From the NCBI GenBank assembly GCA_965248835.1, contig CBDFLJ010000002.1, positions 1 through 64,000 of the forward strand: a DNA stretch of 64,000 bases, in the 5' to 3' direction. Under the pieces are notes generated by a model. The model ran no database searches. It was not told the origin of the DNA and worked only from the letters and a program-made list of their open reading frames with translations. The DNA is from Alphaproteobacteria bacterium. GTDB lineage: Bacteria; Pseudomonadota; Alphaproteobacteria; MPNO01. Shown piece after piece: positions 22,622-36,262 of this stretch. Within the stretch, counting starts at the first letter, position 1, and the number at the start of each line of letters is the position of its first letter. Both the position numbers and the translations under genes were made by a program.

Positions 22622-24961
22622 ATGCAATTCGGGATCGGACAGTCCGTCCTGCGGGTGGAGGACCGCCGCCTGGTCCGCGGGCAGGGCAACTACACCGGCG
22701 ATCTCGACCTGCCGGGCGCGGCGTGGCTGCAGGTGGTCCGCTCGCCCCATGCCCACGCGCGCGTCCTGTCGTTGGCAACCGATGCGGCCCGCGCCGCACC
22801 GGGCGTGCTGGCCGTGCTGACGGCGGAGGATCTGCGCGAGGAGGGCTTCGGCAGCCCGGCGATCGATTTCTTCGGCATCGAGGGCGGCGCCTACCGCCAT
22901 CATGAGGGCACCGGGCTGTTCATGCCCGACAACGCGCTGCTGGCGTCGGATCGAGTCCGCCATGTCGGCGAAGCCATCGCCCTGGTCGTGGCCGAGACCG
23001 ACCCGCAGGCGCGCGACGCCGCGGCGCTGGTCGAAGTCGCGTTCGAGCCGCTGCCGGCCGTCGTCGATCCGGCGGCCGCGCTCGAACCCGGGGCGCCGAT
23101 CGTGTGGGAAGGCGCGCAGGGCAACCTGTGCGCCGATGTCGACTACGGCGATGAGGCCGCCACGGACGAAGTTTTCGCGGCCGCTTCCCATGTCGTGACG
23201 ATCGAGGCGGTCAACAACCGGGTGATCATCAACCCGATGGAGCCGCGCGGCGCGGCGGCGACCTTCGATCCGGCGACCGGCCGCTTTACCGTCCATGCGA
23301 CCACCCAGATGCCCCACCGCGCGAAGACCATGCTGGCCGAGGAGATCATGAACCTGCCGCGCGAAACCGTGCGGGTGGTCTGTCGCGACATGGGCGGCGG
23401 TTTCGGCACCCGCGGCGCGCCGATCCCGGAATGCTTCTACGTCGCCTGGTGCGCGCGCCGCACCGGGCGGCCGGTCAAATGGACCTGCGAGCGGTCCGAG
23501 GGGTTCGTGAGCGACCCGCACGGCCGCGACAACTTGAGCACCGCCGCGCTCGCGCTCGACGCCCGGGGCCGCTTCCTCGCGCTCAAGGTCGATACGATCG
23601 CCAATCTCGGCGCCTATCCCGGCGGCATCGGGCCGATGGTGCCCGTGGTCCTGGGACCGCGGGTCCAGACCGGGGTCTACGACATCCCCGTGCTCCATGC
23701 CCGGATCCGCGTGGCCTACACGAACACCGTCAACGTGTTCGCCTACCGCGGCGCCGGCCAGCCGGAGGCTAATTACCTCATCGAGCGCCTGATCGATGCG
23801 GCGGCCCGCCGGACCGGCATCGATCCGCTGGATCTACGCCGGCGCAATCACATCCCGGCCGGCGCAATGCCCTATCGCAGCCCCGCCGGGGTGAGCTACG
23901 ACAGCGGCGAATACGACGAGAACCTGCGCAAGGCGCTCGCGCTCGCCGACTGGGACGGGTTCGCCGCGCGCCAGGCTGAAAGCCGTGCGCGCGGCTTGCT
24001 CCGCGGCCGGGCGGCCGCCAACTACATCCAGGTCGCAGCCGGGGTGCCCTTCGAGTGGGGCGGGATCGAAGTGCGCGACGACGGCGTGGTCGAGCTCTTC
24101 ACCGGGACCCACAACCACGGCCAGGGCCACGAGACCGCGTTCGCCCAGATGGTGGTCGAGCGGCTCGGGGTGCCCTTCGACAGCGTGCGCCTGGTGATGG
24201 GCGACACCGACCGCATCCCGCGCGGCGAGGGGACGCATGCCTCGCGCTCGGTGATCTTCGCCGGGCCGCTGATCGTCCAGAACGCCGAGACGATCATCGA
24301 GAAGGCGAAGCAGCTTGCGGCCCGCAAGCTCGAGGTCGCCGAGACCGATATCCTCTTCGAGGCCGGACGCTTGGTGGTTGCGGGTACCGACCTGTCGCTC
24401 GACCTGTTCGAAGCCGCCGGCTTCGCACGGACCCTGGAAGATGAACCCGATGCCAGGCTCTACGCCGAGGCCGACTACACCATTCCCGATGCGACCTACC
24501 CCAGCGGCACACATGTCTGCGAGGTTGAGGTCGATGCCGAGACCGGCCGGGTGCGGATCGACCGGTTCACCGCGATCGACGATGTCGGGCGCGCGGTGAA
24601 CCCGATGATCCTGGAAGGCCAGAGCCATGGCGGGATCGCGCAAGGCATCGGCCAGGCCCTGCTGGAAGACTGCCGCTACGACCCGGGCTCCGGACAGCTA
24701 CTGTCGGGCTCGCTGATGGACTACTGCCTGCCGCGCGCCGACGACCTGCCGTCGATCGCAGTCGGCATCCACGAGGCGCCCTCGCCGATCAACGTGCTGG
24801 GGGTCAAGGGCGCCGGAGAAAGCGGATCGACCGGCGCACCGCCGGCGGTGATCAACGCCATCCTCGATGCGCTGGCGCCGCTGGGGGTCCGCGACCTCGA
24901 CATGCCGGCAACGCCGGAGCGGGTCTGGCGCGCCGCCCGAAGCGTCGGGATCAACTGTTGA
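22622..24961 (+). CDS. xanthine dehydrogenase/CoxL-family molybdopterin-binding large subunit
   Basis: RVEDRRLVRGQG.Y, MGGGFG, AYRGAGQPE, GQGHET, KGAGE. Confidence 0.9.
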   Translation: MQFGIGQSVLRVEDRRLVRGQGNYTGDLDLPGAAWLQVVRSPHAHARVLSLATDAARAAPGVLAVLTAEDLREEGFGSPAIDFFGIEGGAYRHHEGTGLFMPDNALLASDRVRHVGEAIALVVAETDPQARDAAALVEVAFEPLPAVVDPAAALEPGAPIVWEGAQGNLCADVDYGDEAATDEVFAAASHVVTIEAVNNRVIINPMEPRGAAATFDPATGRFTVHATTQMPHRAKTMLAEEIMNLPRETVRVVCRDMGGGFGTRGAPIPECFYVAWCARRTGRPVKWTCERSEGFVSDPHGRDNLSTAALALDARGRFLALKVDTIANLGAYPGGIGPMVPVVLGPRVQTGVYDIPVLHARIRVAYTNTVNVFAYRGAGQPEANYLIERLIDAAARRTGIDPLDLRRRNHIPAGAMPYRSPAGVSYDSGEYDENLRKALALADWDGFAARQAESRARGLLRGRAAANYIQVAAGVPFEWGGIEVRDDGVVELFTGTHNHGQGHETAFAQMVVERLGVPFDSVRLVMGDTDRIPRGEGTHASRSVIFAGPLIVQNAETIIEKAKQLAARKLEVAETDILFEAGRLVVAGTDLSLDLFEAAGFARTLEDEPDARLYAEADYTIPDATYPSGTHVCEVEVDAETGRVRIDRFTAIDDVGRAVNPMILEGQSHGGIAQGIGQALLEDCRYDPGSGQLLSGSLMDYCLPRADDLPSIAVGIHEAPSPINVLGVKGAGESGSTGAPPAVINAILDALAPLGVRDLDMPATPERVWRAARSVGINC

Positions 24962-26763: not shown

Positions 26764-27552
26764 TCAGCGCAGCCGGCGGCGGACCATCACGCTGGCCTGC
26801 TCGACCACGACCACCAGCGCGAGCACGACCAGGGTGAGCGTGGCCACTTTCTCGTAATGGAAGGCCCGCGCGTAGGCCTGGATATAGAACCCGATCCCGC
26901 CGGCGCCGACCAGGCCGAGGACCAGGGACTCCCGCAGGTTCAGCTCGAAGCGGAACAGAGTGTCGCGGGCAAGCTCCGGGCCGATCTGGGGGATCACCGC
27001 GAAGCGGACGATCTGCGGCCAGGCGGCGCCGGTGGTCCGCATCGCCTCGATCGGCCCGCCGGATGCGGCCTCGAACGCCTCGGCATAGAACTTGCCCAGC
27101 ATGCCGGCCGAGTGCAGCGCGATCGCGATAATGCCGGGGACCGGCCCCAGCCCGTAGGCGCTGACGAACATCAGCGCCAGCAGGATCACCGGGATGCCGC
27201 GCAAGGCCGCCATCGCCCATTTGACCGGCTGGTGGACCCAGCCCGGGGTGAGGTTGGCCGCCGCCAGCAGCCCCAGCCCGAACGACAGGAGGGCGCCGAA
27301 AACCGTGCCGAGCAGCGCGATCTGCAAGGTCTCGATCATCGCTCGAAAGACAGTGCCGGCGATGGTCAGATCGGGCGGCACCATGCGGGCGAGGAACGCG
27401 CCCAGGCGCGGCAGCCCGGCGCCAAGCTGCGTGGGGTCGAATCCGGTGCCGGCCCAGGCCCAGGCCACGGCGAGCACGATCCCGAGCAGGACCGCCGCGC
27501 GCGCGAGGCTGTCACGCCACGTGGCTGGGCGGGTCCTGTCGTTCACGCGCAC
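26764..27552 (-). CDS. PhnE-like ABC transporter permease
   Basis: ETLQIA, LRGIP, GMLGKFYAEAFE, FRFELNLRES.VLGLVGAGGIG. Confidence 0.88.
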   Translation of the reverse strand: MRVNDRTRPATWRDSLARAAVLLGIVLAVAWAWAGTGFDPTQLGAGLPRLGAFLARMVPPDLTIAGTVFRAMIETLQIALLGTVFGALLSFGLGLLAAANLTPGWVHQPVKWAMAALRGIPVILLALMFVSAYGLGPVPGIIAIALHSAGMLGKFYAEAFEAASGGPIEAMRTTGAAWPQIVRFAVIPQIGPELARDTLFRFELNLRESLVLGLVGAGGIGFYIQAYARAFHYEKVATLTLVVLALVVVVEQASVMVRRRLR

Positions 27553-28339
27553 GCTCCGAGGGCTGGGCCGGCGCGACGATCCGCGGCGGCGGGCTGCGGC
27601 CGTAGATCCGCCTCAAGGCCACCCCATCCAGGTTCTCGCCGCCGGCGCTGTCGAAGACGATCTTCCCGCCGGCCAGCCCGAGAATGCGCTCGGCGTGCGC
27701 GCTGGCAAGCGCCGGGTGATGGACAACCGCGATCGCGGTGATCGCGCGCGCGCGGGCCTGACCCATCACCAGCGCCAGGATGTCATCGGCCAGCACCGGG
27801 TCGAGCTGGCTGACCGGCTCATCGGCGGTGATCAGGTCCGGCTCCTGCGCCAGGGCGCGCGCCACCGCGACGCGCTGGCGCTGCCCGCCGGAGAGCGAAT
27901 CGGTCCGCCGCGCGGCGAGTTCGCCGAGCCCGGTGGCCGCAATCGCCCGCTGTGCCGCCTCGAGGTCTGCATCGCCGAAGACGCCGAACAGGCTCGCCAG
28001 CACACCGGTCTGCCCGAGCCTGCCGCACAGCACGTTGCGCAACACATCGGTACGCTCGACGAGCTGGAACTCCTGGAAGATCGCCGCGTTGCGGCGTCGG
28101 AAGCCGCGCACGCGGGCACCCGGGGCGGTGAGATCGACGCCATGGACCGCGACTGCGCCGGCCTCCGCCGCGACAAGGCCGTGGAGCGCGCGCAGCAGGG
28201 TCGTCTTGCCCGACCCGCTTGGCCCGATGACCGCGACCCGGGCGCCGGCGCTGATCGACAGGTGCCCGATCGACAGCGCCGGCGGCCCGTCCGCCGCGTA
28301 GCGGATGCTGAGATCGGTGATGCGCACCGCTTCTGTCAT
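27512..28339 (-). CDS. PhnC-like ABC transporter ATP-binding protein
   Basis: Walker A GPSGSGKT, NVLCGRLG, LSGGQRQR, ADEPVSQLDP. Confidence 0.9.
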   Translation of the reverse strand: MTEAVRITDLSIRYAADGPPALSIGHLSISAGARVAVIGPSGSGKTTLLRALHGLVAAEAGAVAVHGVDLTAPGARVRGFRRRNAAIFQEFQLVERTDVLRNVLCGRLGQTGVLASLFGVFGDADLEAAQRAIAATGLGELAARRTDSLSGGQRQRVAVARALAQEPDLITADEPVSQLDPVLADDILALVMGQARARAITAIAVVHHPALASAHAERILGLAGGKIVFDSAGGENLDGVALRRIYGRSPPPRIVAPAQPSERARERQDPPSHVA

Positions 28340-29211
28340 TTGCCGATAAGACCATAGGCGCGGGCGAGCCGGGCGACCGCCTCGTAAGCCGCGTGATCGG
28401 GCCTGACATAGCCGTCCGGCGCATAGACGTGCTTCAGGAGATGTTGCTTGTCGGGCTCGTTCAGCGCCAGCATCGCAGCCACGAACGCTTCGCGGACCGA
28501 GACCTCGAGCTCCTTGCGGGCGATCACCACGTGCGAGGGGATCGCCGGGGTCTCCGCGAGCGTTCTCACCTCGCCGCGCCGGCCGGGGTCGAGCAGCAGG
28601 CTGGCATAGATGCTCACGCCCGCGGCATCGACGAGACCGTTGGCGACCGCCTGGATCGCCTGCTGGTAGCCGCCGGCGAAATAGACCGCTCCGAAGAAGG
28701 CCCTGGGATCCTGGCGGCGCTTGAGATGGCCGTCGGCGACAAACAGCTCCAGCGGGTAGAGATAGCCCGATTCGGAGATCGGATCGGCGAAGGCGATCGA
28801 TTTGCCCCTGAGCGCGGCGAGGGTCGCGATGCCGCTGTCGCGCCTGACGAAGACCGCGCCGGAATAGCTCGGCTTGCCGCGATAGACCTCCGACAAAACC
28901 GCCCGCGCGCCGGTCCGCGCGCGGGCGATCACATAGGCCAGCGCGCCGAGGAACGAGATGTCGGCCTTGCCGGCCTCCAGCGCCTCGATCGCCGCGGCAT
29001 GGTCCTGGGTGAGGTAGCCAGTCACCTTGCGGCCGAGCGCGCCTTCGAGGTAGATGCCGATGGCCCGGACATCGCCCAGGAGCTTCTCCGGATTCTCCTG
29101 CGGCACGAAGGCGAGCACCAGGGCCTTGTCGGCAGCAGAAGCCGCGGGACCGGCGGCGAGGCCCAGCAGCACCAGCACGGCGGCGAGCGCGTCAATAAAG
29201 CGCGGTCGCAT
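28336..29211 (-). CDS. PhnD/PtxB-family periplasmic solute-binding protein with an altered ligand pocket
   Basis: Signal peptide; LAFVPQE, FLGALAYV, GKSIAFADPISESGYLYP; ATGA overlap with the ATPase gene. Confidence 0.85.
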   Translation of the reverse strand: MRPRFIDALAAVLVLLGLAAGPAASAADKALVLAFVPQENPEKLLGDVRAIGIYLEGALGRKVTGYLTQDHAAAIEALEAGKADISFLGALAYVIARARTGARAVLSEVYRGKPSYSGAVFVRRDSGIATLAALRGKSIAFADPISESGYLYPLELFVADGHLKRRQDPRAFFGAVYFAGGYQQAIQAVANGLVDAAGVSIYASLLLDPGRRGEVRTLAETPAIPSHVVIARKELEVSVREAFVAAMLALNEPDKQHLLKHVYAPDGYVRPDHAAYEAVARLARAYGLIGK

Positions 29212-31066
29212 CGCGCGCCTCCGCCTGTTTGTAGGCCGCCCATAGCCGTGCCGCCCCGCGCCAATCCTGCCGCCGGACCGATTCGGCGATCGCATCGATC
29301 CGGCCGGCCAGCGCCTCGACGCGGCCGCGCGCGGCGATGTTGGCCATCCCCGGCGCATCGGCGCGCAAATCGGCCGCGACGGTCTGCAGCAGCAGCAGCG
29401 CATGCCGGCGGTCGCGCGCGGGGATCAGGGTCTCCAGCGTCGACAGGAAGGTCGAGGCCTCCTCGAAGCTCATCTTGAACCGGGTGTTGGTCGCATCGAA
29501 TGTCTCGAACGGCGCCGCGCCGGTCCCGACCGCTTCGAGATACGCCACGAGGTCGGCGGCCTCGGTGTCGTCCAGGCCCATGGCGTAGCGCCGGTCGAAC
29601 CAGTTCACGACCGCCTCCAGGCTCGGCAGCGAGCCGTCATGGAAGTAGGGCGCGCTGTAGCTGAGGCCGAGCAGCGTCGGCGTGTCGAAGGCGCCGTCGC
29701 CGGCATGCGCCGAGGACGGCCCGACCGAGCCGATGTCGTGGCGCTTGCCGTCGACGAAGTTGCCGTCGGGGATATGGCAGCTTGCGCACGACCGGCCGGC
29801 CATCGAGGGGTAGGCCCGGTTGAAGATCGCCTCGCCGCGCCGCGCCGCGGCGCTCGCCCCGGCGTTGAGCCGGCCGTCGCGGTCGAGCAGAGGCGTCGGC
29901 AGGAAATCGAACTCGTTGAGGTAGGCGATCAGCGCATCGAGCATCAAAGGGCTCGGCTCGGGCCCGGCGAACTCGTCCACGATGACCGCGCGGACGAATT
30001 CGCGCAGGCTCACGATCCGGCCGTCGCGGCCGTAGGGCGCAGTAAACCGGATGCCGCGCAGGCTCGGCGTGTCCAAAGGATCGAAGCGGTGGTCGTTGGC
30101 TTTCGGGTTGAAAAACCCGCCATCGATATCGATGCCGCCCCGATGCCGGCTGAGCCCCGGGATGTAGAGCGCGTTGTTGATGTCGCCGCGGTTGTGGCAG
30201 GTCGAGCACGCCAGGCCGAGCGCACGGGCCGGGCGGCCGAAAATCAGCGGCGAATCGAACAGCATGTCGCCATAGGCGACCAGGAACAGCTTCTTCTCGT
30301 CGATCCCGCGTGCCTCGAAGTTGAGCACCAGGCGCGGCAGGCGGGCCTGCTCGACCAGCGCGCCGTCCGGCGGCAGCCAGGGTTTTCCGCGCGGCAGAAT
30401 GTCGAGCGCGCCACGCTCGAAATTCTCCGAAAGGCCGGTTGCGAGGCGGTCGATCAGCCCTTGCGCGCCGTCCCGCCCGGCACCCAGCGCGGTCGTCAGT
30501 TCGAGCCAGGCCAGACCGAAGCGCCGGTACGCCTTCGGATCGTTGCTCCGCAGGGCGTCCTCGAAGGCGCGGTAGATCGATCGGGCGGCCAGCACATCGC
30601 CGAGCGCGGCCCGCTTCCCGTCGAGCTTCGCCTTCGCGCGGTCCAGCCGCGCACGCACCGCGATCGATGTCGCCTGGGCGATCGCGGCGCGCAGGGCGCC
30701 GGTATCGCGGGCCTTGATCGCGGCGCGGATTGCCGAACCCGGGTCGCGGCCGGCAAACCCCGCCAGCCGCTCAAGGATCGCATAGGCCGGCTCGGTGCCG
30801 GCATGGAGGAATTTCGGCGGCGCCGGCGCCGTTGCATAGCGCTCCTCGATGCCCTCCCAGTCGACGGGCTCGATCGCGCTGGCAAAGACCCCGAACAGGT
30901 GGGCCGCTGCCAAGGGGTGCCATTGCGCGCGGCTGGCGACATGGGCCTCGGCAGCGGGTGCCGCAGCCACGGCGAGCCACAGCACCGCCGGCAACGCCAA
31001 CCGCGTGCCGGCCGCCGAAACCCTTGCGGTGCGGCGCCGGATCGATGCGCCGGGTTTGCCCTGCAC
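29192..31066 (-). CDS. secreted di-heme cytochrome c (CcP/MauG superfamily) with a long N-terminal helical domain
   Basis: Two CXXCH motifs (CSTCH, CASCH), DTPSLRG..TAPY, RRGEAIF, DTPTL....SAPYFHDG; signal peptide ending AEA; GTG start preceded by GGAG. Confidence 0.82.
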   Translation of the reverse strand: MQGKPGASIRRRTARVSAAGTRLALPAVLWLAVAAAPAAEAHVASRAQWHPLAAAHLFGVFASAIEPVDWEGIEERYATAPAPPKFLHAGTEPAYAILERLAGFAGRDPGSAIRAAIKARDTGALRAAIAQATSIAVRARLDRAKAKLDGKRAALGDVLAARSIYRAFEDALRSNDPKAYRRFGLAWLELTTALGAGRDGAQGLIDRLATGLSENFERGALDILPRGKPWLPPDGALVEQARLPRLVLNFEARGIDEKKLFLVAYGDMLFDSPLIFGRPARALGLACSTCHNRGDINNALYIPGLSRHRGGIDIDGGFFNPKANDHRFDPLDTPSLRGIRFTAPYGRDGRIVSLREFVRAVIVDEFAGPEPSPLMLDALIAYLNEFDFLPTPLLDRDGRLNAGASAAARRGEAIFNRAYPSMAGRSCASCHIPDGNFVDGKRHDIGSVGPSSAHAGDGAFDTPTLLGLSYSAPYFHDGSLPSLEAVVNWFDRRYAMGLDDTEAADLVAYLEAVGTGAAPFETFDATNTRFKMSFEEASTFLSTLETLIPARDRRHALLLLQTVAADLRADAPGMANIAARGRVEALAGRIDAIAESVRRQDWRGAARLWAAYKQAEARDATALY

Positions 31067-31080
31067 GAAGTTTGCTCCGC

Positions 31081-31112
31081 CTGAACAACTTAGCCTTGGC
31101 TAAGTTATTCAG
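31081..31112. promoter_or_regulatory. MntR-type operator (32-bp palindrome)
   Basis: CTGAACAACTTAGCC-TT-GGCTAAGTTATTCAG, 15-bp arms with one mismatch; core CAACTTAGC-N4-GCTAAGTTA resembles the E. coli MntR box AAACATAGC-N4-GCTATGTTT; lies beside mntR. Confidence 0.8.
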
Positions 31113-31132
31113 TCTCGGCCAACAATTGTCAA
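31104..31132 (-). promoter_or_regulatory. putative sigma70 promoter of the cytochrome/ABC operon
   Basis: Minus strand TTGACA (31132-31127), 17-nt spacer, AATAAC; the -10 lies inside the palindrome. Confidence 0.55.
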
Positions 31133-31186
31133 GGGGCCGGACATTGGGCATAGTCGGCCCCGACCGGGTGACGGGACGACGCCGCT

Positions 31187-31690
31187 TTGACCGAGCCGAC
31201 CAAGCCAATGGCCAAACAGGAGCCGGTCGAGCCGACGCTCGACGGCCCGGTCTCGGCCCCCGACCTGCTCGCGCCGGACGCCCAGGCCGACCATCACCGC
31301 CAGACCCGGGCCGCCCGCCAGACCGAGATCGCCGAAGACTATGTCGAGCTGATCGCCGACCTGATCGATTCGACCGGCGAGGCGCGCGCGGCCGACATCT
31401 CGCGCCGGCTCGGCATCACCCAGGCCAGCGTCGCCAAGATGATCGCCCGGCTGCAGCAGTCTGGCCTGGTGGTCACCCAGCCCTACCGCGCGATTTTCCT
31501 GACCGAGGAGGGACGGCGCATCGCCGAGACCTCACGCCGGCGCCACCAGATCGTGGTCGCCTTCCTGCTCGCCATCGGGGTGAGCGAGGAGGCCGCGCGC
31601 GCCGATGCCGAGGGGATCGAGCACCACGTCAGCGCCGAGACCCTGGCCGCGTTCGAGCGCATGGTCGCCGCGAAGGGCGATCCGTCCTGA
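31187..31690 (+). CDS. mntR: manganese-responsive DtxR-family regulator MntR
   Basis: EDYVELIADL...GEAR, VAKM, PYRAIFLT, RRRHQIV, DAEGIEHHVS closely match E. coli-type MntR. Confidence 0.92.
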   Translation: MTEPTKPMAKQEPVEPTLDGPVSAPDLLAPDAQADHHRQTRAARQTEIAEDYVELIADLIDSTGEARAADISRRLGITQASVAKMIARLQQSGLVVTQPYRAIFLTEEGRRIAETSRRRHQIVVAFLLAIGVSEEAARADAEGIEHHVSAETLAAFERMVAAKGDPS

Positions 31691-34023
31691 ACGAGTCGCT
31701 GATCGGGATGCCGCTTAAGCGGCTGGAGGATCCGGCGTTGCTGCGCGGCGCGGCGCGTTTCGTCGACGACATCCGCATTCCCGGCACCGTGCACGCGGCC
31801 TTCCTGCGCAGCCCGCTCGCGCACGCCCGGATCCGGGCCGTCGATCTCGCGGCGGCCAGGACCGCGCCCGGCGTGGTCGCGGCGCTCGGCCATGCCGATA
31901 TCGCCCCGCATCTGACCGCACCGCGCCTGCGGACCGCGCTGCCCAGCGACGCCTACCGCTACATCCTCGACCGGCCGATTCTCGCCTGGGACGAGCTCTG
32001 CCACGTCGGAGAGCCGGTCGCGGTGGTGATCGCCCGGACCCGCTACGAAGCCGAAGATGCGGTCGGCCTGATCGCGCTCGACCTCACGCCGCTGCCGCCG
32101 GTCGCCGACTGCCGCGACGCCCTGGAACCGGGCGCCGCGACGGCCCATGCCGATGCCGAGGACAACCTGCTCGCCGCCTACGAGGTGGCCTATGGCGACG
32201 TCGAGGCGGCCTTCGAGGCGGCCGCGCACACCGTCTCGGTCTCGCTGCGCCAGCACAAGGGACTCGGGCTCGCCATCGAGTGCCGCGGGGTGCTCGCCTA
32301 TCCCGACCCGGTCTCGGGCGTGCTCTCGGTCTGGCTTTCGAGCCAGGCCCCGCACGGCGCGCTGCGCGCGCTGGTGGCGCTGCTCGGACTGGACGAGAAC
32401 CGGATCGCGGTGCGCGCGGCCGAGGTCGGCGGCGGGTTCGGGCCCAAGCTGGTGGTCTATCCCGAGGACATCGCGGTCGCGGCGGCGGCCCGGCTGCTTT
32501 CCCGTCCGGTCAAGTGGATCGAGGACCGGCGGGAGCATTTCGTCGCCACCACCCAGGAGCGCGACCAGTATTGGGACATCGAGGCCGCGACCGACGTCGG
32601 CGGCCGGCTGCTCGGGCTGCGCGGCCGGATGATCCACGACCACGGCGCCTATACCGCGCGCGGGCTCAACCTCGCCTATAACGCCGCCACCGTGGTGCCG
32701 GGGCCCTACCGGCTGCCGGCCTACCGGCTGGAGGTCTCGATCGCGCTGACCAACAAGGTGCCGACGACCCCGGTGCGCGGCGCCGGCCACCCGCAGGGCA
32801 CCTTTGCCATGGAACGGACTCTCGACCGCGTGGCCGAGGTGCTCGGCGTCGCGCCCGAGGAGGTCCGGCGCCGCAACATGATCGGCGCAGACGAGATGCC
32901 CTATGCGCGGGCGCTGGCTGCGCGCAGCGGGGCCGGCATCGTCCTCGATTCCGGCGACTACCCGGCCTGCCAGGACGCTGCCATCGCGCTCGCCCACTAT
33001 CCGGACTTCCACCGCCGCCAGCGCGCCGCGCGGGAGGCGGGCCGGTATCTCGGGATCGGCCTTGCCAACTACGTCAAGGGCACCGGGCGCGGCCCGTTCG
33101 AGGCGGTCACGCTGCGCATCGCACCGTCGGGCCGGGTGAGCCTGTATACCGGGGCGACCGCGATCGGCCAGGGCACCCGGACGATGCTGGCGCAGATCTG
33201 CGCCGAGCGCCTGGGAGTCGCGCCGGGCGCGATCACCGTGGTCGCCGGGGACACCGCGGCGGTCCCAACCGGGATCGGCGCCTCGGCCAGCCGCCAGGCG
33301 GTCAACGCCGGCTCCTCGGCCCATCTCGCCGCGGTCGCGCTGGAGGCCAGAGTCAAGCGGCTCGCCGCCGGCGTGCTCGAGGTCGCCCCGGATGACGTCG
33401 AGCTCGCCGGCGGGCAGGCGCGGGTGCGCGGCGTCGCCGCGCTGTCGGTCGGGCTCGGCGCGCTGGCCGACATGGTCTACGGCACGCCGGGCTATTCCCT
33501 GCCCGCCGGCGCGACGCCGGGGCTGGAGGAGACCGCGGCGGCGACCTTCGACGGCTTGAGCTATGCCAACGGCTGCCATGTCTGCGAGGTCGAGGTCGAT
33601 GCCGAGACCGGCCGGATCGCGGTCCGGCGCTATATCGTGGTCCATGACTGCGGGCGGATGGTCAATCCGATGATCGTCGACGGTCAGGTCGTCGGCGGCC
33701 TCGCCCACGGGCTCGGCAACGCCCTCCTGGAACGGATGGGCTTCGATGAACAGGCTCAGCCCACGACCACGACACTGGCCGACTACATGGTGACCGGCGC
33801 TGCCGAAATGCCGCGGGTGGCGATTCGCCATTTCGAATCACCGACCGATCACAACCCGCTCGGCATCAAGGGGGTGGGCGAAAGCGGTACCGTGCCGGCG
33901 ACCGCAGCCGTTGCCGCCGCGCTCGAGGACGCCCTGCGGCCCTTTGCGGTGCGGATCTCGGAAATGCCCGTCAGCCCGGCCGATCTCGCCCGCCGGATCG
34001 CCGCCTTCCGGGGCGCCGGTTGA
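31687..34023 (+). CDS. xanthine dehydrogenase/CoxL-family molybdopterin-binding large subunit
   Basis: KRLEDPALLRG, VGGGFGPK, PVRGAGHPQ, GQG, KGVGE; start uncertain (CTG 31687 or ATG 31708). Confidence 0.88.
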   Translation: MNESLIGMPLKRLEDPALLRGAARFVDDIRIPGTVHAAFLRSPLAHARIRAVDLAAARTAPGVVAALGHADIAPHLTAPRLRTALPSDAYRYILDRPILAWDELCHVGEPVAVVIARTRYEAEDAVGLIALDLTPLPPVADCRDALEPGAATAHADAEDNLLAAYEVAYGDVEAAFEAAAHTVSVSLRQHKGLGLAIECRGVLAYPDPVSGVLSVWLSSQAPHGALRALVALLGLDENRIAVRAAEVGGGFGPKLVVYPEDIAVAAAARLLSRPVKWIEDRREHFVATTQERDQYWDIEAATDVGGRLLGLRGRMIHDHGAYTARGLNLAYNAATVVPGPYRLPAYRLEVSIALTNKVPTTPVRGAGHPQGTFAMERTLDRVAEVLGVAPEEVRRRNMIGADEMPYARALAARSGAGIVLDSGDYPACQDAAIALAHYPDFHRRQRAAREAGRYLGIGLANYVKGTGRGPFEAVTLRIAPSGRVSLYTGATAIGQGTRTMLAQICAERLGVAPGAITVVAGDTAAVPTGIGASASRQAVNAGSSAHLAAVALEARVKRLAAGVLEVAPDDVELAGGQARVRGVAALSVGLGALADMVYGTPGYSLPAGATPGLEETAAATFDGLSYANGCHVCEVEVDAETGRIAVRRYIVVHDCGRMVNPMIVDGQVVGGLAHGLGNALLERMGFDEQAQPTTTTLADYMVTGAAEMPRVAIRHFESPTDHNPLGIKGVGESGTVPATAAVAAALEDALRPFAVRISEMPVSPADLARRIAAFRGAG

Positions 34024-34149: not shown

Positions 34150-34197
34150 AAAATGTGGAGAAACCGCTTGCGTGCCGGGGCACCGGACCCCTGTCAA

Positions 34198-34244
34198 CCA
34201 CAAAATGTTGCGTTTTCATCTTGCTTCACCACAATTTGTTGTGC
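34198..34244. promoter_or_regulatory. tandem NrdR boxes
   Basis: CCACAAAATGTTGCGT (34198) and CCACAATTTGTTGTGC (34229), 31 bp apart, the typical NrdR tandem spacing. Confidence 0.75.
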
Positions 34245-34393
34245 AGTCTACGCGTTCGCACTGCCTCGTCGACCGATTCGGTTTCGGCTGGTTCGGGCGC
34301 GGGGCGGCGCTCCTCGGTGACGCCAATGCGTTCGACCGGCGCAGCCTGGTAACGGCGTTCCGGCGATGGACCGAACGACTTAGGAGGGGCGGC

Positions 34394-36262
34394 TTGCTGG
34401 ATCTGATTTCTTCGAAGCACGATCTGCTTCAGTCCCCGCGCGAGGTCACGGTCGAGATCGACCGCGGCCGCGACGATCTGCTTACCGATTTCGGCAAGGC
34501 GGTGCTGGACGACCGCTACCTGCTGCCGGAGGAGCGCTATCAAGACCTGTTCGCCCGGGTCGCCTCCCACTACGGCGATGACTCGGCCCACGCCCAGCGG
34601 CTCTACGACTACATGTCGCGGCTGTGGTTCATGCCCTCGACGCCGATCCTGTCCAACGGCGGCACCCAGCGCGGCCTGCCGATCTCGTGCTTTCTCAACG
34701 AGGCCGAGGACAGTCTGGACGGCATCGTCGATCTGTGGAACGAGAACGTGTGGCTGGCCGCGCGCGGCGGCGGCATCGGCAGCTATTGGGGCAATCTGCG
34801 CTCGATCGGCGAGAAGGTCTCGGCCAACGGCAAGACCTCGGGCATCATCCCGTTCATCCGGGTGATGGATTCGCTCACGCTGGCGATCTCCCAGGGTTCG
34901 CTGCGCCGCGGCTCGGCCGCGGTCTATATCGGCATCGACCACCCCGAGATCGAGGAGTTCATCGAGATCCGCCGGCCGACCGGCGGTGACCCCAACCGCA
35001 AGGCGCTCAACCTGCACCACGGCGTGGTGATCACCGACGCCTTCATGCGCGCGGTCGAGAACAACGAAGATTGGGCGCTGATCAGCCCCAAGGACAGGAC
35101 CGTCGTCCGCCGCATCCAGGCGCGCGCGCTGTGGATCCGTCTCCTGACCGGCCGGGTCGAGACCGGCGAGCCCTATTTCATCTATATCGACCACGTCAAC
35201 CGTGCGGTGCCCGAGCACCAAAAGCTGGCCGGGCTGCAGGTCAGGATGTCCAACCTGTGCAGCGAGATCACCCTGCCGACCGGGCTCGACCACCACGACC
35301 GGGAGCGGACCGCGGTGTGCTGCCTGTCCTCGCTCAACCTGGAGACCTATCTGGAGTGGCGCGAGGATCCCCGCTTCATCGAGGACGTGATGCGCTTCCT
35401 CGACAATGTGCTGGAGGACTTCATCGGCAAGGCGCCCGATTCGATGGCGCGCGCGCGCTACGCCGCTTCCCGCGAGCGTTCGGTCGGGCTCGGCGTGATG
35501 GGCTTCCATTCCTTCCTGCAGAGCCAGCGCGTGCCGCTGGAGTCCGCGCCGGCCAAGGCATGGAACCGCACCATGTTTCGTCATATCCGGGCCCACGCCG
35601 ATGCCGCCTCCAGCCTGCTGGCGGCCGAACGCGGGCCGTGCCCGGACGCGGCCGATTACGGCTTCCAGGAGCGCTTCTCCAACAAGATGGCGATCGCGCC
35701 CACCGCCTCGATCTCGATCATCTGCGGCGGCTCTTCACCCGGGATCGAGCCCAACGCGGCCAACGCCTTCACCCACAAGACGCTGTCGGGCTCCTTCAGC
35801 GTGCGCAACAAATACCTGAAGGCGCTCCTGGCCTCGAAGGGCCAGGACACCGACGAGGTCTGGACCTCGATCACCGTCCACGAGGGCTCGGTCGGTCATC
35901 TCGATTTCCTGAGCGCCGATGAGAAGGCGATCTTCAAGACCGCCTTCGAGATCGACCAGCGCTGGCTGATCGACCTGGCGGCCGATCGCGCGCCCTATGT
36001 CTGCCAGTCCCAGTCGCTCAACATCTTCCTGCCGGCCGATGTCCACAAGAAAATGCTGCACGACATCCACTTCCAAGCTTGGAAGAAGGGCGTGAAATCG
36101 CTCTACTACCTGCGCTCGCGCTCGCTCCAGCGGGCCGACGTGATCTCGACCAAGGTCGACGTTGCCGACAACGGCATCGCCGCACCGGAAGTCGCGGCAC
36201 CGATCCCGCTGATGGCCGCGGAGCCCGGCGCCGACTACGAAGAATGCCTCGCCTGCCAGTAG
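34394..36262 (+). CDS. nrdA: class I ribonucleotide reductase alpha subunit (short form, no ATP cone)
   Basis: PISCF, SNLCSEI, AIAPTASIS, KSLYYLRS, C-terminal CLAC; TTG start after AGGAGG. Confidence 0.95.
   Translation: MLDLISSKHDLLQSPREVTVEIDRGRDDLLTDFGKAVLDDRYLLPEERYQDLFARVASHYGDDSAHAQRLYDYMSRLWFMPSTPILSNGGTQRGLPISCFLNEAEDSLDGIVDLWNENVWLAARGGGIGSYWGNLRSIGEKVSANGKTSGIIPFIRVMDSLTLAISQGSLRRGSAAVYIGIDHPEIEEFIEIRRPTGGDPNRKALNLHHGVVITDAFMRAVENNEDWALISPKDRTVVRRIQARALWIRLLTGRVETGEPYFIYIDHVNRAVPEHQKLAGLQVRMSNLCSEITLPTGLDHHDRERTAVCCLSSLNLETYLEWREDPRFIEDVMRFLDNVLEDFIGKAPDSMARARYAASRERSVGLGVMGFHSFLQSQRVPLESAPAKAWNRTMFRHIRAHADAASSLLAAERGPCPDAADYGFQERFSNKMAIAPTASISIICGGSSPGIEPNAANAFTHKTLSGSFSVRNKYLKALLASKGQDTDEVWTSITVHEGSVGHLDFLSADEKAIFKTAFEIDQRWLIDLAADRAPYVCQSQSLNIFLPADVHKKMLHDIHFQAWKKGVKSLYYLRSRSLQRADVISTKVDVADNGIAAPEVAAPIPLMAAEPGADYEECLACQ

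Follow-up and report, generated by a model that had tools for sequence, protein, structure and literature searches.

Four overlapping genes for a di-haem cytochrome and a PhnDCE-like ATP-binding cassette (ABC) transporter lie divergent to mntR on a 64,000-nucleotide (nt) stretch of DNA from an alphaproteobacterium (positions 1 to 64,000 of contig CBDFLJ010000002.1, assembly GCA_965248835.1), referred to here as the window. We analyzed these genes as a candidate module for manganese acquisition. The analysis was carried out by computation and covered the structure of the operon, its operator, the conservation of the cluster, its linkage to regulators, the substitutions in the pocket of the binding protein, and a complex of cytochrome and binding protein whose prediction passed its controls.

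Organization of the locus

The operon is encoded on the minus strand. Its first gene, for the di-haem cytochrome, occupies positions 29192-31066 and encodes 624 amino acids (aa) from a GTG start. It is followed by the genes for a periplasmic binding protein of PhnD fold (28336-29211; 291 aa), a PhnC-like ABC ATPase (27512-28339; 275 aa), and a PhnE-family ABC permease (26764-27552; 262 aa), and the overlaps between consecutive genes amount to 20, 4, and 41 nt in this order. A preliminary description of this DNA had proposed four overlapping genes of these kinds, which were all found on the minus strand at or close to where it had placed them. The binding-protein gene most likely starts at the ATG at 29211 and not at the first start of the open reading frame (29403), since its orthologues begin at the same MRPRF residues.

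The cytochrome matched Pfam CCP_MauG (PF03150) with 39.3 bits (cut-off, 25.6). The binding protein was matched over its full length by Pfam Phosphonate-bd (PF12974; 2.3e-56) but remained below the PhnD equivalog TIGR03431 (153.9 bits versus a cut-off of 261.1), passing only the broad subfamily TIGR01098. The ATPase reached 218 bits against TIGR02315, under the cut-off of 266, and matched Pfam ABC_tran at 6e-29, and the permease exceeded the cut-off of TIGR01097 (262.3 versus 216.7 bits).

MntR and its operator

The divergent gene (31187-31690, plus strand) encodes 167 aa from a TTG start, with an alternative ATG at 31209, and is a short member of the DtxR family. The protein scored 205.6 bits against the MntR equivalog NF008273 (cut-off, 153) and aligned to Escherichia coli MntR (2H09) at 1.4e-39. 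In an alignment to 1on1, its residues D51, E54, H120, E142, E145, and H146 fell on the metal ligands of Bacillus subtilis MntR, which we take to be D8, E11, H77, E99, E102, and H103 of the binuclear Mn site. With the equivalog cut-off passed and all six ligand positions (6/6) retained, the earlier identification of this gene as mntR held. No Rfam family matched in a scan of the window, and thus no Mn riboswitch was found at the locus.

Between mntR and the cytochrome gene lies the 32-bp palindrome CTGAACAACTTAGCCTTGGCTAAGTTATTCAG (31081-31112, with a core at 31087-31106). Its 20-bp core occurs once in the window, with matches in 0 of 100 shuffles, and the palindrome is the sole perfect pattern match in the 4.89-Mb genome. 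Of the 16 positions that are specified in the enterobacterial MntR consensus AACATAGCnnnnGCTATGTT, as quoted in PMC1698941, it matches 14. When the minus strand was read by eye, a putative sigma-70 promoter of the operon (31104-31132) was recognized, with a perfect TTGACA (31132-31127), a 17-nt spacer, and AATAAC (31109-31104), followed by GGAG 8 nt before the GTG start. The AATAAC hexamer sits inside the palindrome, which is in line with the earlier statement that an MntR-type palindrome covers the -10 element of the operon. A consensus promoter scanner omitted this promoter because its -10 element ends in C. A promoter-like site for mntR (31126-31154, plus strand; TTGTCA, 17 nt, CATAGT) stands back to back with the -35 element of the operon.

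A position weight matrix (PWM), built from 19 distinct boxes of related loci linked to mntR, gave 30.0 bits for the site at 31087 and 18.4 bits for the next-best position in the genome. Judged by this gap and by the single perfect match, MntR appears to have one strong target in the genome, namely, the cytochrome-PhnDCE operon. No match to Nramp/MntH was obtained in the genome, whose assembly is reported to be 100% complete with 9.5% contamination. Two binding proteins of the ZnuA family (PF01297) are encoded elsewhere in the genome and scored 222 and 197 bits as ZnuA versus about 85 bits as MntC, and the binding protein of the operon did not match the ZnuA models, which represent the cluster A-I Mn/Zn fold of SitA, MntC, and PsaA. 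Thus, by these profile searches, no classical Mn importer was evident in the genome.

Conservation of the gene cluster

Scoring of 8000 candidates yielded 1292 homologs of the cytochrome at an E value of ≤0.001, many of them full-length with 46-83% identity. One genome per species was scanned, which gave 113 relatives, and 80 loci were kept, in which the neighboring genes were located by tblastn with the five proteins of the window. The genes for binding protein, ATPase, and permease (D-C-E) were complete in 67 of the 71 loci that had at least 2700 nt downstream, and 61 of the 71 passed a strict test of the D-C-E order. Five loci (L015, L019, L020, L046, and L053) failed the strict test solely through overlapping neighbor genes, L052 carries the C and E genes upstream instead, and four of the 71 (L054, L055, L057, and L059) have no transporter genes. 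The cluster is found in Alpha- and Gammaproteobacteria, Thermodesulfobacteriota/Dadabacteria, Acidobacteriota, Spirochaetota, Chloroflexota, and Methylomirabilota, with at least seven phyla among its hosts.

The family is sparse. Among 301 evenly sampled alphaproteobacterial genomes, a full-length orthologue was present only in the genome of the window, and the 16 other matches were shorter paralogues that start at profile positions 222-270 and comprise the haem core only. A comparison of co-occurrence with Nramp and MntR at the class level was dropped, with one full-length orthologue among the 301 genomes. No phnD neighbor was found at the eight loci of shorter paralogues that were examined. 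The closest of the shorter paralogues (L098:1579-2985, on contig 20 of genome G069) shares 46% identity over the haem core and the C-terminal bundle and lacks the N-terminal domain. It is directly preceded by an imelysin gene (L098:754-1575; Peptidase_M75, 8e-18). The pairing of imelysin with di-haem proteins has been linked to iron uptake. Other metal-related neighbors were seen at single loci, namely, DUF4198 downstream at L047:11690-12982, DUF4399 downstream at L023:11481-11921, PepSY_TM upstream at L045:5198-6586, and MerR/MerT with SCO1 in the neighborhood at L058:5538-6428.

Regulators and boxes at related loci

A divergent mntR (>45% identity) was present at 37 of the 73 loci whose upstream DNA extended over at least 900 nt, and in 34 of these 37 the spacer contained a box that matches at least 12 of the 16 half-site positions (consensus, AAnTTAGCCnnGGCTAAnTT). 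The PWM was then applied to the 36 loci without an adjacent mntR. A box alone, with at least 12 bits and within 300 nt upstream of the cytochrome gene, was found at six of them: L038 (Acidobacteriota), L043 (Methylomirabilales), L046 (Kiloniella), L047 (a gammaproteobacterial metagenome-assembled genome), L049 (Rhodospirillales), and L053 (Halopseudomonas). At 11 of the 36 loci, the upstream window outscored all other 300-nt windows of the locus. A simpler count of the exact motif TTAG-N6-CTAA upstream of the estimated gene start had given 20 of 73 loci and a density of 1.03 per kb upstream versus 0.035 elsewhere; it missed many sites because the N termini vary and was therefore replaced by the PWM. 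Of five genomes with a box alone that were tested, three encode an MntR above the cut-off elsewhere, and the other two contain long DtxR-family genes below it.

The loci of Thermodesulfobacteriota/Dadabacteria carry a co-directional regulator gene directly upstream, whose product combines DtxR N- and C-domains with a FeoA domain. Such a co-directional DtxR-type gene was recognized by Pfam at L012 and L014 and by tblastn at L014, L021, L027, and L030, and L035 received the label solely by its likeness to L012. The best NCBIfam match of the L012 regulator was the Thermus-type MntR (176 bits, below the cut-off), versus 98.7 bits for DtxR. At the two Bosea loci (L040 and L041), the order is mntH (NF001923, 636 bits; cut-off, 430), a divergent gene of the Fur family (PF01475; 1.9e-33 and 6.9e-31), and the cytochrome operon. 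An operator-like motif, TTGCAA-N5-TTGCAA, precedes both mntH and the cytochrome gene there; the copies at L040 are 17 nt long and 94% complementary. In Rhizobiales, the Fur homolog is the Mn regulator Mur, which controls mntH (PMC1698941).

A maximum-likelihood tree was calculated from 73 cytochromes (the window and 72 loci, with eight loci left out that had short or interrupted matches). The loci with a divergent mntR formed two separate well-supported clades, one with 12 members, including the window, and one with 24 marine alphaproteobacteria, and at least three changes of this label are needed on the tree. Thus, the association with Mn regulators that the preliminary description would have had to see in a gene-neighborhood search was found, both in the loci with a divergent mntR and, beyond those, in the six loci with a box alone, the DtxR-type genes, and the mntH and Fur-family genes of Bosea. 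A different upstream motif, TTTGACA-N-ATC(A/G)A(A/T)A, was noticed in Spirochaetota loci and one alphaproteobacterial locus, all of them without an MntR box (L032:6933-6952, L033:6934-6953, L048:958-977, and L029:2201-2220). It may be a candidate operator of another regulator.

The pocket of the binding protein is rebuilt

The closest solved relatives of the binding protein were PtxB (5o2j, 5.9e-22; 5jvb), ArrX/AioX, HtxB, and PhnD, with identities of about 28-30% to PtxB. For PtxB-type proteins, a conserved STS-H motif has been defined by Bisson et al., and the ligand residues of Te_PtxB are Y55, Y100, S130, T131, S132, and H160, with the capping Y208 and its partner D22 (PMC5700983). In an alignment to 5jvb, D22, Y55, Y100, and S130 of Te_PtxB correspond to Q38, H71, Y116, and S146 of the window protein, and T131, S132, H160, and Y208 correspond to E147, S148, Y182, and H227. 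Five of the eight ligand positions are therefore replaced, including the introduction of an acidic Glu into the anion loop (STS to SES). All 46 aligned orthologues, which came from all phyla, had Q38, Y116, S146, E147, S148, Y182, and H227, and at least 90% of them had H71. As a control, the other high-scoring PhnD copy of the genome, on contig 1, was compared; it retains D, Y, S-T-S, H, and Y, and the window protein and nine sampled orthologues (10/10) have Q, H, S-E-S, Y, and H at the same columns. The transporter had been called repurposed in the preliminary description, and the replacement of the phosphite/phosphonate ligand residues by His, Glu, and Tyr fits that term. The second PhnD-family gene, with the full D/Y/STS/H/Y oxyanion signature (genome G000, contig 1, 1960925-1961662; L085), probably encodes the real phosphonate/phosphite binding protein of the genome.

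The window pocket, which has two His and two Tyr besides the carboxylate of the anion loop, looks like a metal site for a hard cation, and the retained S146, S148, and Y116 possibly leave space for an accompanying small anion. The Pfam match at 2.3e-56, a permease that passes the PhnE equivalog cut-off, and PtxB as the closest solved relative would also be expected of an ordinary importer of P oxyanions (phosphite, hypophosphite, or phosphonate) of the PtxABC/PhnCDE type that lies beside mntR by chance. We consider such an importer scarcely credible, as the five replacements are invariant across phyla, the PhnD equivalog was missed (154 versus 261 bits), and the linkage to Mn-type regulators recurs in separate clades. 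Moreover, no carbon-phosphorus (C-P) lyase genes, ptxD, or htx were found in the flanks of the window or in the scanned flanks of 20 related loci examined; the absence of C-P lyase genes and ptxD from the operon had already been remarked on and extends to the window flanks.

The same pocket raises the question of iron. Its two His, two Tyr, and one Glu presumably resemble the ferric site of FbpA and transferrin, so that the operon might import Fe(III) into a site of this kind, with the cytochrome as a ferroxidase or reductase and the link to MntR as a case of Mn/Fe cross-regulation. The DtxR family includes iron sensors, and the L012 regulator does match DtxR; a di-haem paralogue adjoins the imelysin gene at L098, for which a role in iron uptake is presumed, and a PepSY_TM gene lies upstream at L045. 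However, the regulator of the window scores above the cut-off of the MntR equivalog and carries metal ligands of the Mn type, its operator fits the MntR consensus and not a Fur or IdeR box, the operon is linked to mntH in Bosea, and even the L012 regulator scored higher as MntR than as DtxR (176 versus 99 bits). Overall, we regard iron import as quite unlikely.

Export of the binding protein may differ between hosts. Many of the orthologues of Rhodobacterales/Stappiaceae (L060-L082, e.g., L063:8806-9666) have a twin-arginine-like signal at the N terminus (MLSRRNFL) and may be exported in a folded, perhaps preloaded, state by the twin-arginine translocation pathway. The window protein starts with MRPRF, a poor fit to the twin-arginine motif.

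The cytochrome combines a di-haem core with two helical domains

The cytochrome comprises a signal peptide (to about A41), an N-terminal helical domain (about 50-220), a di-haem core (about 247-522) with CxxCH motifs at C287/H291 and C427/H431, and a C-terminal four-helix bundle (522-624). A model built from 118 sequences reached a predicted local distance difference test score (pLDDT) of 88.3 and a predicted template modeling score (pTM) of 0.86, with a pLDDT of >90 in the N-terminal domain. An earlier model from 18 sequences (pLDDT of 60.9; haem core, <50) was dropped. After the AxA of the signal peptide, the mature protein begins with H42 (30941-30943); most family members share this first His, and a few have Asp instead.

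The core has the fold of bacterial cytochrome c peroxidases (bCCPs) and MauG. VIA-align gave 3o5c as a match with a Z score of 16.2 (root mean square deviation [rmsd] of 3.5, 238 aligned residues), and MbnH (6e1c; Z of 15.4, rmsd of 3.5, 234 aligned), YhjA (Z of 15.2), the gamma subunit of hydrazine synthase (5c2v; Z of 15.1), and MauG (3l4m; Z of 15.0) lay close together. In Foldseek, the best match of the model was 5c2v_C (3.3e-7), and bCCPs, MbnH, and MauG were also retrieved. Hydrazine synthase gamma was the best solved relative by sequence profile as well, with a common HD-x-G-x-G motif after the second CxxCH. In that subunit, the C-terminal haem has bis-His coordination and serves in electron transfer (PMC12758564).

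The Met of 3o5c (NTM) aligned to the invariant W489-F490 of the cytochrome family. We take this Met to be the ligand of the electron-transfer haem of bCCPs. The scores against the equivalogs of MauG (TIGR03791; 46.9 versus a cut-off of 443.85) and MbnH (TIGR04039; 58 versus 362.85) came from local matches, and the best NCBIfam match was the MbnH family, again local. Since the position of the Met ligand is replaced and the MauG and MbnH scores are far below their cut-offs, the cytochrome is, as judged from these comparisons, a distinct branch of the bCCP/MauG superfamily.

The N-terminal helical domain and the C-terminal bundle were present in every full-length family member. In a fold search with the whole model, residues 522-624 gave generic four-helix-bundle matches (cytochrome b562 and PsbQ/CyanoQ) with a Z score of about 12, which lies within the noise for helical bundles. 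Residues 42-235 gave no usable match in the ESM Atlas, and a Pfam search at an E value of ≤10 returned nothing meaningful for the N- and C-terminal fragments. Kinship of the extra domains with imelysin (Peptidase_M75) was probed by hhalign against the L098 imelysin, with a probability of only 0.4. The parallel to EfeUOB and imelysin systems drawn in the preliminary description is thus one of analogy: the L098 paralogue adjoins an imelysin gene, and the extra domains have no detected sequence relation to it.

The cytochrome is predicted to dock at the pocket of the binding protein

A complex of the mature cytochrome (42-624) and the mature binding protein (27-291) was predicted with their own alignments and with two haems and one Mn included. 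The score was 0.71 (median of 0.65, 0.71, and 0.73), compared to 0.00 for the best of three controls. Among solved complexes, 58 of 80 attained this mark, and among mismatched pairs, 2 of 110 did so, counts that are roughly valid here. The three runs had at least 60% of their contacts in common, and the partner pLDDT was at least 84. We know of no solved complex of a di-haem enzyme with such a binding protein; therefore, it seems unlikely that the prediction reproduced a known structure.

On the side of the cytochrome, the interface comprises residues 43, 46-47, 152-196 (with the invariant G184, W187, and L188), 284, and 568-573, of which residue 284 is three before the first haem's Cys. On the side of the binding protein, it comprises residues 37, 41, 69-72, 110, 140-144, and 176-194 and some of 202-213. 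Q38, H71, the SES loop, and Y182 with its invariant FAGGYQQ lie within or next to these segments. The prediction supports, without showing it, a role of the N-terminal helical domain as a docking module that puts the region of the first haem at the mouth of the pocket. A conserved WHP is located at cytochrome residues 49-51, near the N-terminal residues 43 and 46-47 of the predicted interface.

If the cytochrome were a periplasmic peroxidase, induced when Mn-dependent antioxidant defenses fail, the importer could carry an unrelated solute and be co-regulated only. Its bCCP core fold (3o5c, Z of 16.2) and the passed CCP_MauG cut-off would agree with this, yet the Met ligand of the electron-transfer haem of bCCPs is not conserved, two extra domains are invariant in the family, different phyla retain the order of cytochrome and D-C-E genes, with stop and start codons that overlap, and a direct complex with the binding protein was predicted that passed its controls. 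We hold this explanation to be very improbable.

MauG-like enzymes can also serve periplasmic metal-binding proteins, as MbnH does by acting on MbnP. Accordingly modeled, uptake would still respond to Mn, and the enzyme would oxidatively modify a Tyr, Trp, or His in the pocket of the binding protein to create the metal site instead of acting on the metal. The core fold matches MbnH (6e1c, titled as 'associated with microbial copper homeostasis') and MauG (3l4m) about as well as it matches peroxidases, the best NCBIfam match, though local, is the MbnH family, and the predicted complex sets invariant pocket segments against the enzyme. In MauG, a Tyr ligand stands in place of the bCCP Met. In the present family, that position is an invariant Phe (F490), and a Tyr ligand of the MauG type was not identified; the MbnH and MauG equivalog scores are far under the cut-offs (58 versus 363 and 47 versus 444), and an enzyme needed once for maturation would not have to retain strict one-to-one operon coupling with translational overlap. 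We therefore consider maturation of the binding protein an unlikely function.

A proposed model for manganese acquisition

We propose that the operon is an MntR-repressed module for Mn acquisition in which the di-haem enzyme acts on the cargo of the binding protein, at the binding protein, and PhnE and PhnC carry out import; we assign this reading a probability of about 0.6. Once Mn(II)-MntR dissociates from its operator over the -10 element, the periplasmic three-domain di-haem enzyme and the ABC importer of PhnD/C/E type would be made. The binding protein would have kept the PhnD fold with its oxyanion pocket rebuilt to His, Glu, Tyr, and two Ser, which may bind a hard metal cation and possibly a small anion along with it. 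The enzyme would dock via its N-terminal helical domain at the mouth of the pocket, with the first-haem region close by, and could perform a redox step on the metal that enters or sits in the binding protein, either loading by oxidation of Mn(II) to Mn(III) or reductive release from a Mn(III)-ligand species. The loaded binding protein would then hand the metal to the PhnE2-PhnC2 assembly.

The identity of the cargo as Mn, its oxidation state, and how and in which direction the haems react are inferred. Within the module, a redox step on the metal, in the form of Mn(III) trapping or of reductive release from Mn(III)-ligand complexes, is a tentative proposal that we place somewhat short of even odds. 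The narrower version of redox-gated loading, in which the docked haem enzyme alters the oxidation state of a metal in or entering the pocket, e.g., from Mn(II) to Mn(III) that is trapped by Tyr, His, and Glu, is doubtful. The loading of transferrin by ceruloplasmin offers a parallel for such a step.

Several observations weigh against the proposed module. The pairing of cytochrome and PhnD is not obligatory. Four Anderseniella-like genomes, which form one clade, hold the cytochrome orthologue without an orthologous binding protein, and none of the four (0/4; genome completeness not given) contained a PhnD-like orthologue at an E value of ≤1e-20. A gene for a TAXI-like (NMT1_3) binding protein is located directly upstream and co-directional there (L054:5451-6644, L055:5433-6629, and also L057 and L059). 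As it stands in place of the PhnD orthologue, the partner can be swapped; no relation between the profile of the PhnD-like binding protein and the TAXI-like protein of L054 was detected by hhalign. With regard to regulation, 26 of the 36 loci without an adjacent mntR scored under 10 with the PWM and have no convincing box, and the success of the PWM at 37 of 37 mntR-linked loci is circular and provides no evidence, as these were its training loci. The long DtxR-type regulators of other phyla score under every curated cut-off and could be iron-responsive, and the His/Glu/Tyr set of the pocket would be no less suitable for Fe(III) than for Mn. Finally, the operon promoter was called by eye, the tree came from a quick and not a careful maximum-likelihood search, and the calibration of the complex score was made without user alignments or accompanying ligands.

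Neighboring genes

The neighbors of the operon in the window encode a glutathione S-transferase, a Zn-dehydrogenase, and two molybdopterin oxidoreductases. The latter are paralogous large subunits of the xanthine dehydrogenase/aldehyde oxidase family, whose genes bracket the locus (22631-24961 and 31738-34023). A gene for the large subunit of a class I-type ribonucleotide reductase (34172-36262) begins 2.5 kb past mntR. This stretch has a G+C content of 0.64 versus about 0.69, and no B12 or other riboswitch was found in it at the Rfam gathering thresholds.

Discussion

Bacterial Mn import is known from Nramp/MntH, ABC systems of the SitABCD type, MntX, and ZIP proteins. To our knowledge, PhnDCE-type transporters are known only for oxyanions of P, As, and possibly Se. 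The present module shares with MntH and SitABCD/MntABC/PsaABC the short DtxR-family MntR, an AAC(A/T)TAGC-N4-GCTA(T/A)GTT operator over the importer promoter, a divergent arrangement that suggests autoregulation, and presumably the role of supplying Mn when it is scarce. It differs from these importers in the PhnD fold of the binding protein, which replaces that of ZnuA/TroA, in its PhnE/PhnC-type permease and ATPase, and in a first gene for a 624-aa di-haem enzyme that is predicted to bind the binding protein. With PtxABC, PhnCDE, and HtxBCDE, it has in common the fold and the gene set of binding protein, ATPase, and one permease. Their STS-H-Tyr-Asp signature, in contrast, is changed to SES-Y-H-Q, no oxidizing or C-P-cleaving partner is encoded in the flanks examined, and the regulators recognized at the loci are of the Mn type and not of the Pho type.

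MbnH-MbnP and MauG-preMADH resemble the module in a di-haem core of the same superfamily and a periplasmic partner encoded next door and, in the case of MbnH/MbnP, in their connection to metal homeostasis. Unlike those enzymes, the cytochrome has additional N- and C-terminal helical domains and equivalog scores far below the cut-offs, and its partner is an ABC binding protein. Hydrazine synthase gamma (5C2V chain C) is the best match of the di-haem core by sequence and Foldseek and carries the HD-x-G-x-G motif, but the module lacks the alpha and beta subunits as well as an anammox context. EfeUOB, FtrABCD, and the imelysin plus di-haem loci likewise put a periplasmic redox enzyme and a metal importer under a metal-responsive repressor; they differ in the class of transporter, in the architecture of the enzyme, and probably in the metal. 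Systems of the FbpABC/transferrin type are presumably similar in their class II scaffold of anion-binding ancestry, with Tyr, His, and Glu as ligands for a hard cation and perhaps a synergistic anion; we take them to differ in the family of the binding protein, the lack of a redox partner, and control by Fur and not MntR.

Uptake by ABC transporters under control of a metal repressor and with a periplasmic redox partner is thus already known, and what is new is the family of the binding protein, the architecture of the enzyme, and the predicted docking of the two. The preliminary description knew of no account of this combination, and literature searches, which reached the main texts and not supplementary tables, yielded no description of a cytochrome-PhnDCE-MntR module either. 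For alphaproteobacterial MntR, the part of the survey by Rodionov et al. that deals with this regulator lists only mntH-type targets, and it calls the mntR of Mesorhizobium sp. BNC1 'enigmatic', its only site being upstream of mntR itself (PMC1698941).

In the genome of the window, which gave no match to Nramp, MntR has one strong operator, and the target of this MntR is a phosphonate-type transporter. If the module imports Mn, it would add a new class of importers that is unrelated to Nramp or SitABCD, a phosphonate-type binding protein would have been converted to a metal site, and the cytochrome would be the first di-haem enzyme of the MauG/bCCP superfamily to work on an ABC binding protein. 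Cultured carriers, including Ruegeria, Leisingera, Shimia, Pseudovibrio, and Bosea, make the module directly testable. If the proposal is true, annotations as 'phosphonate transporter' and 'cytochrome c peroxidase' would be corrected in more than 100 species. The route would then be used by marine bacteria of the Roseobacter group, relatives of Defluviicoccus, and several other phyla, and it would bear on the access of marine and wastewater bacteria to oxidized or complexed Mn.

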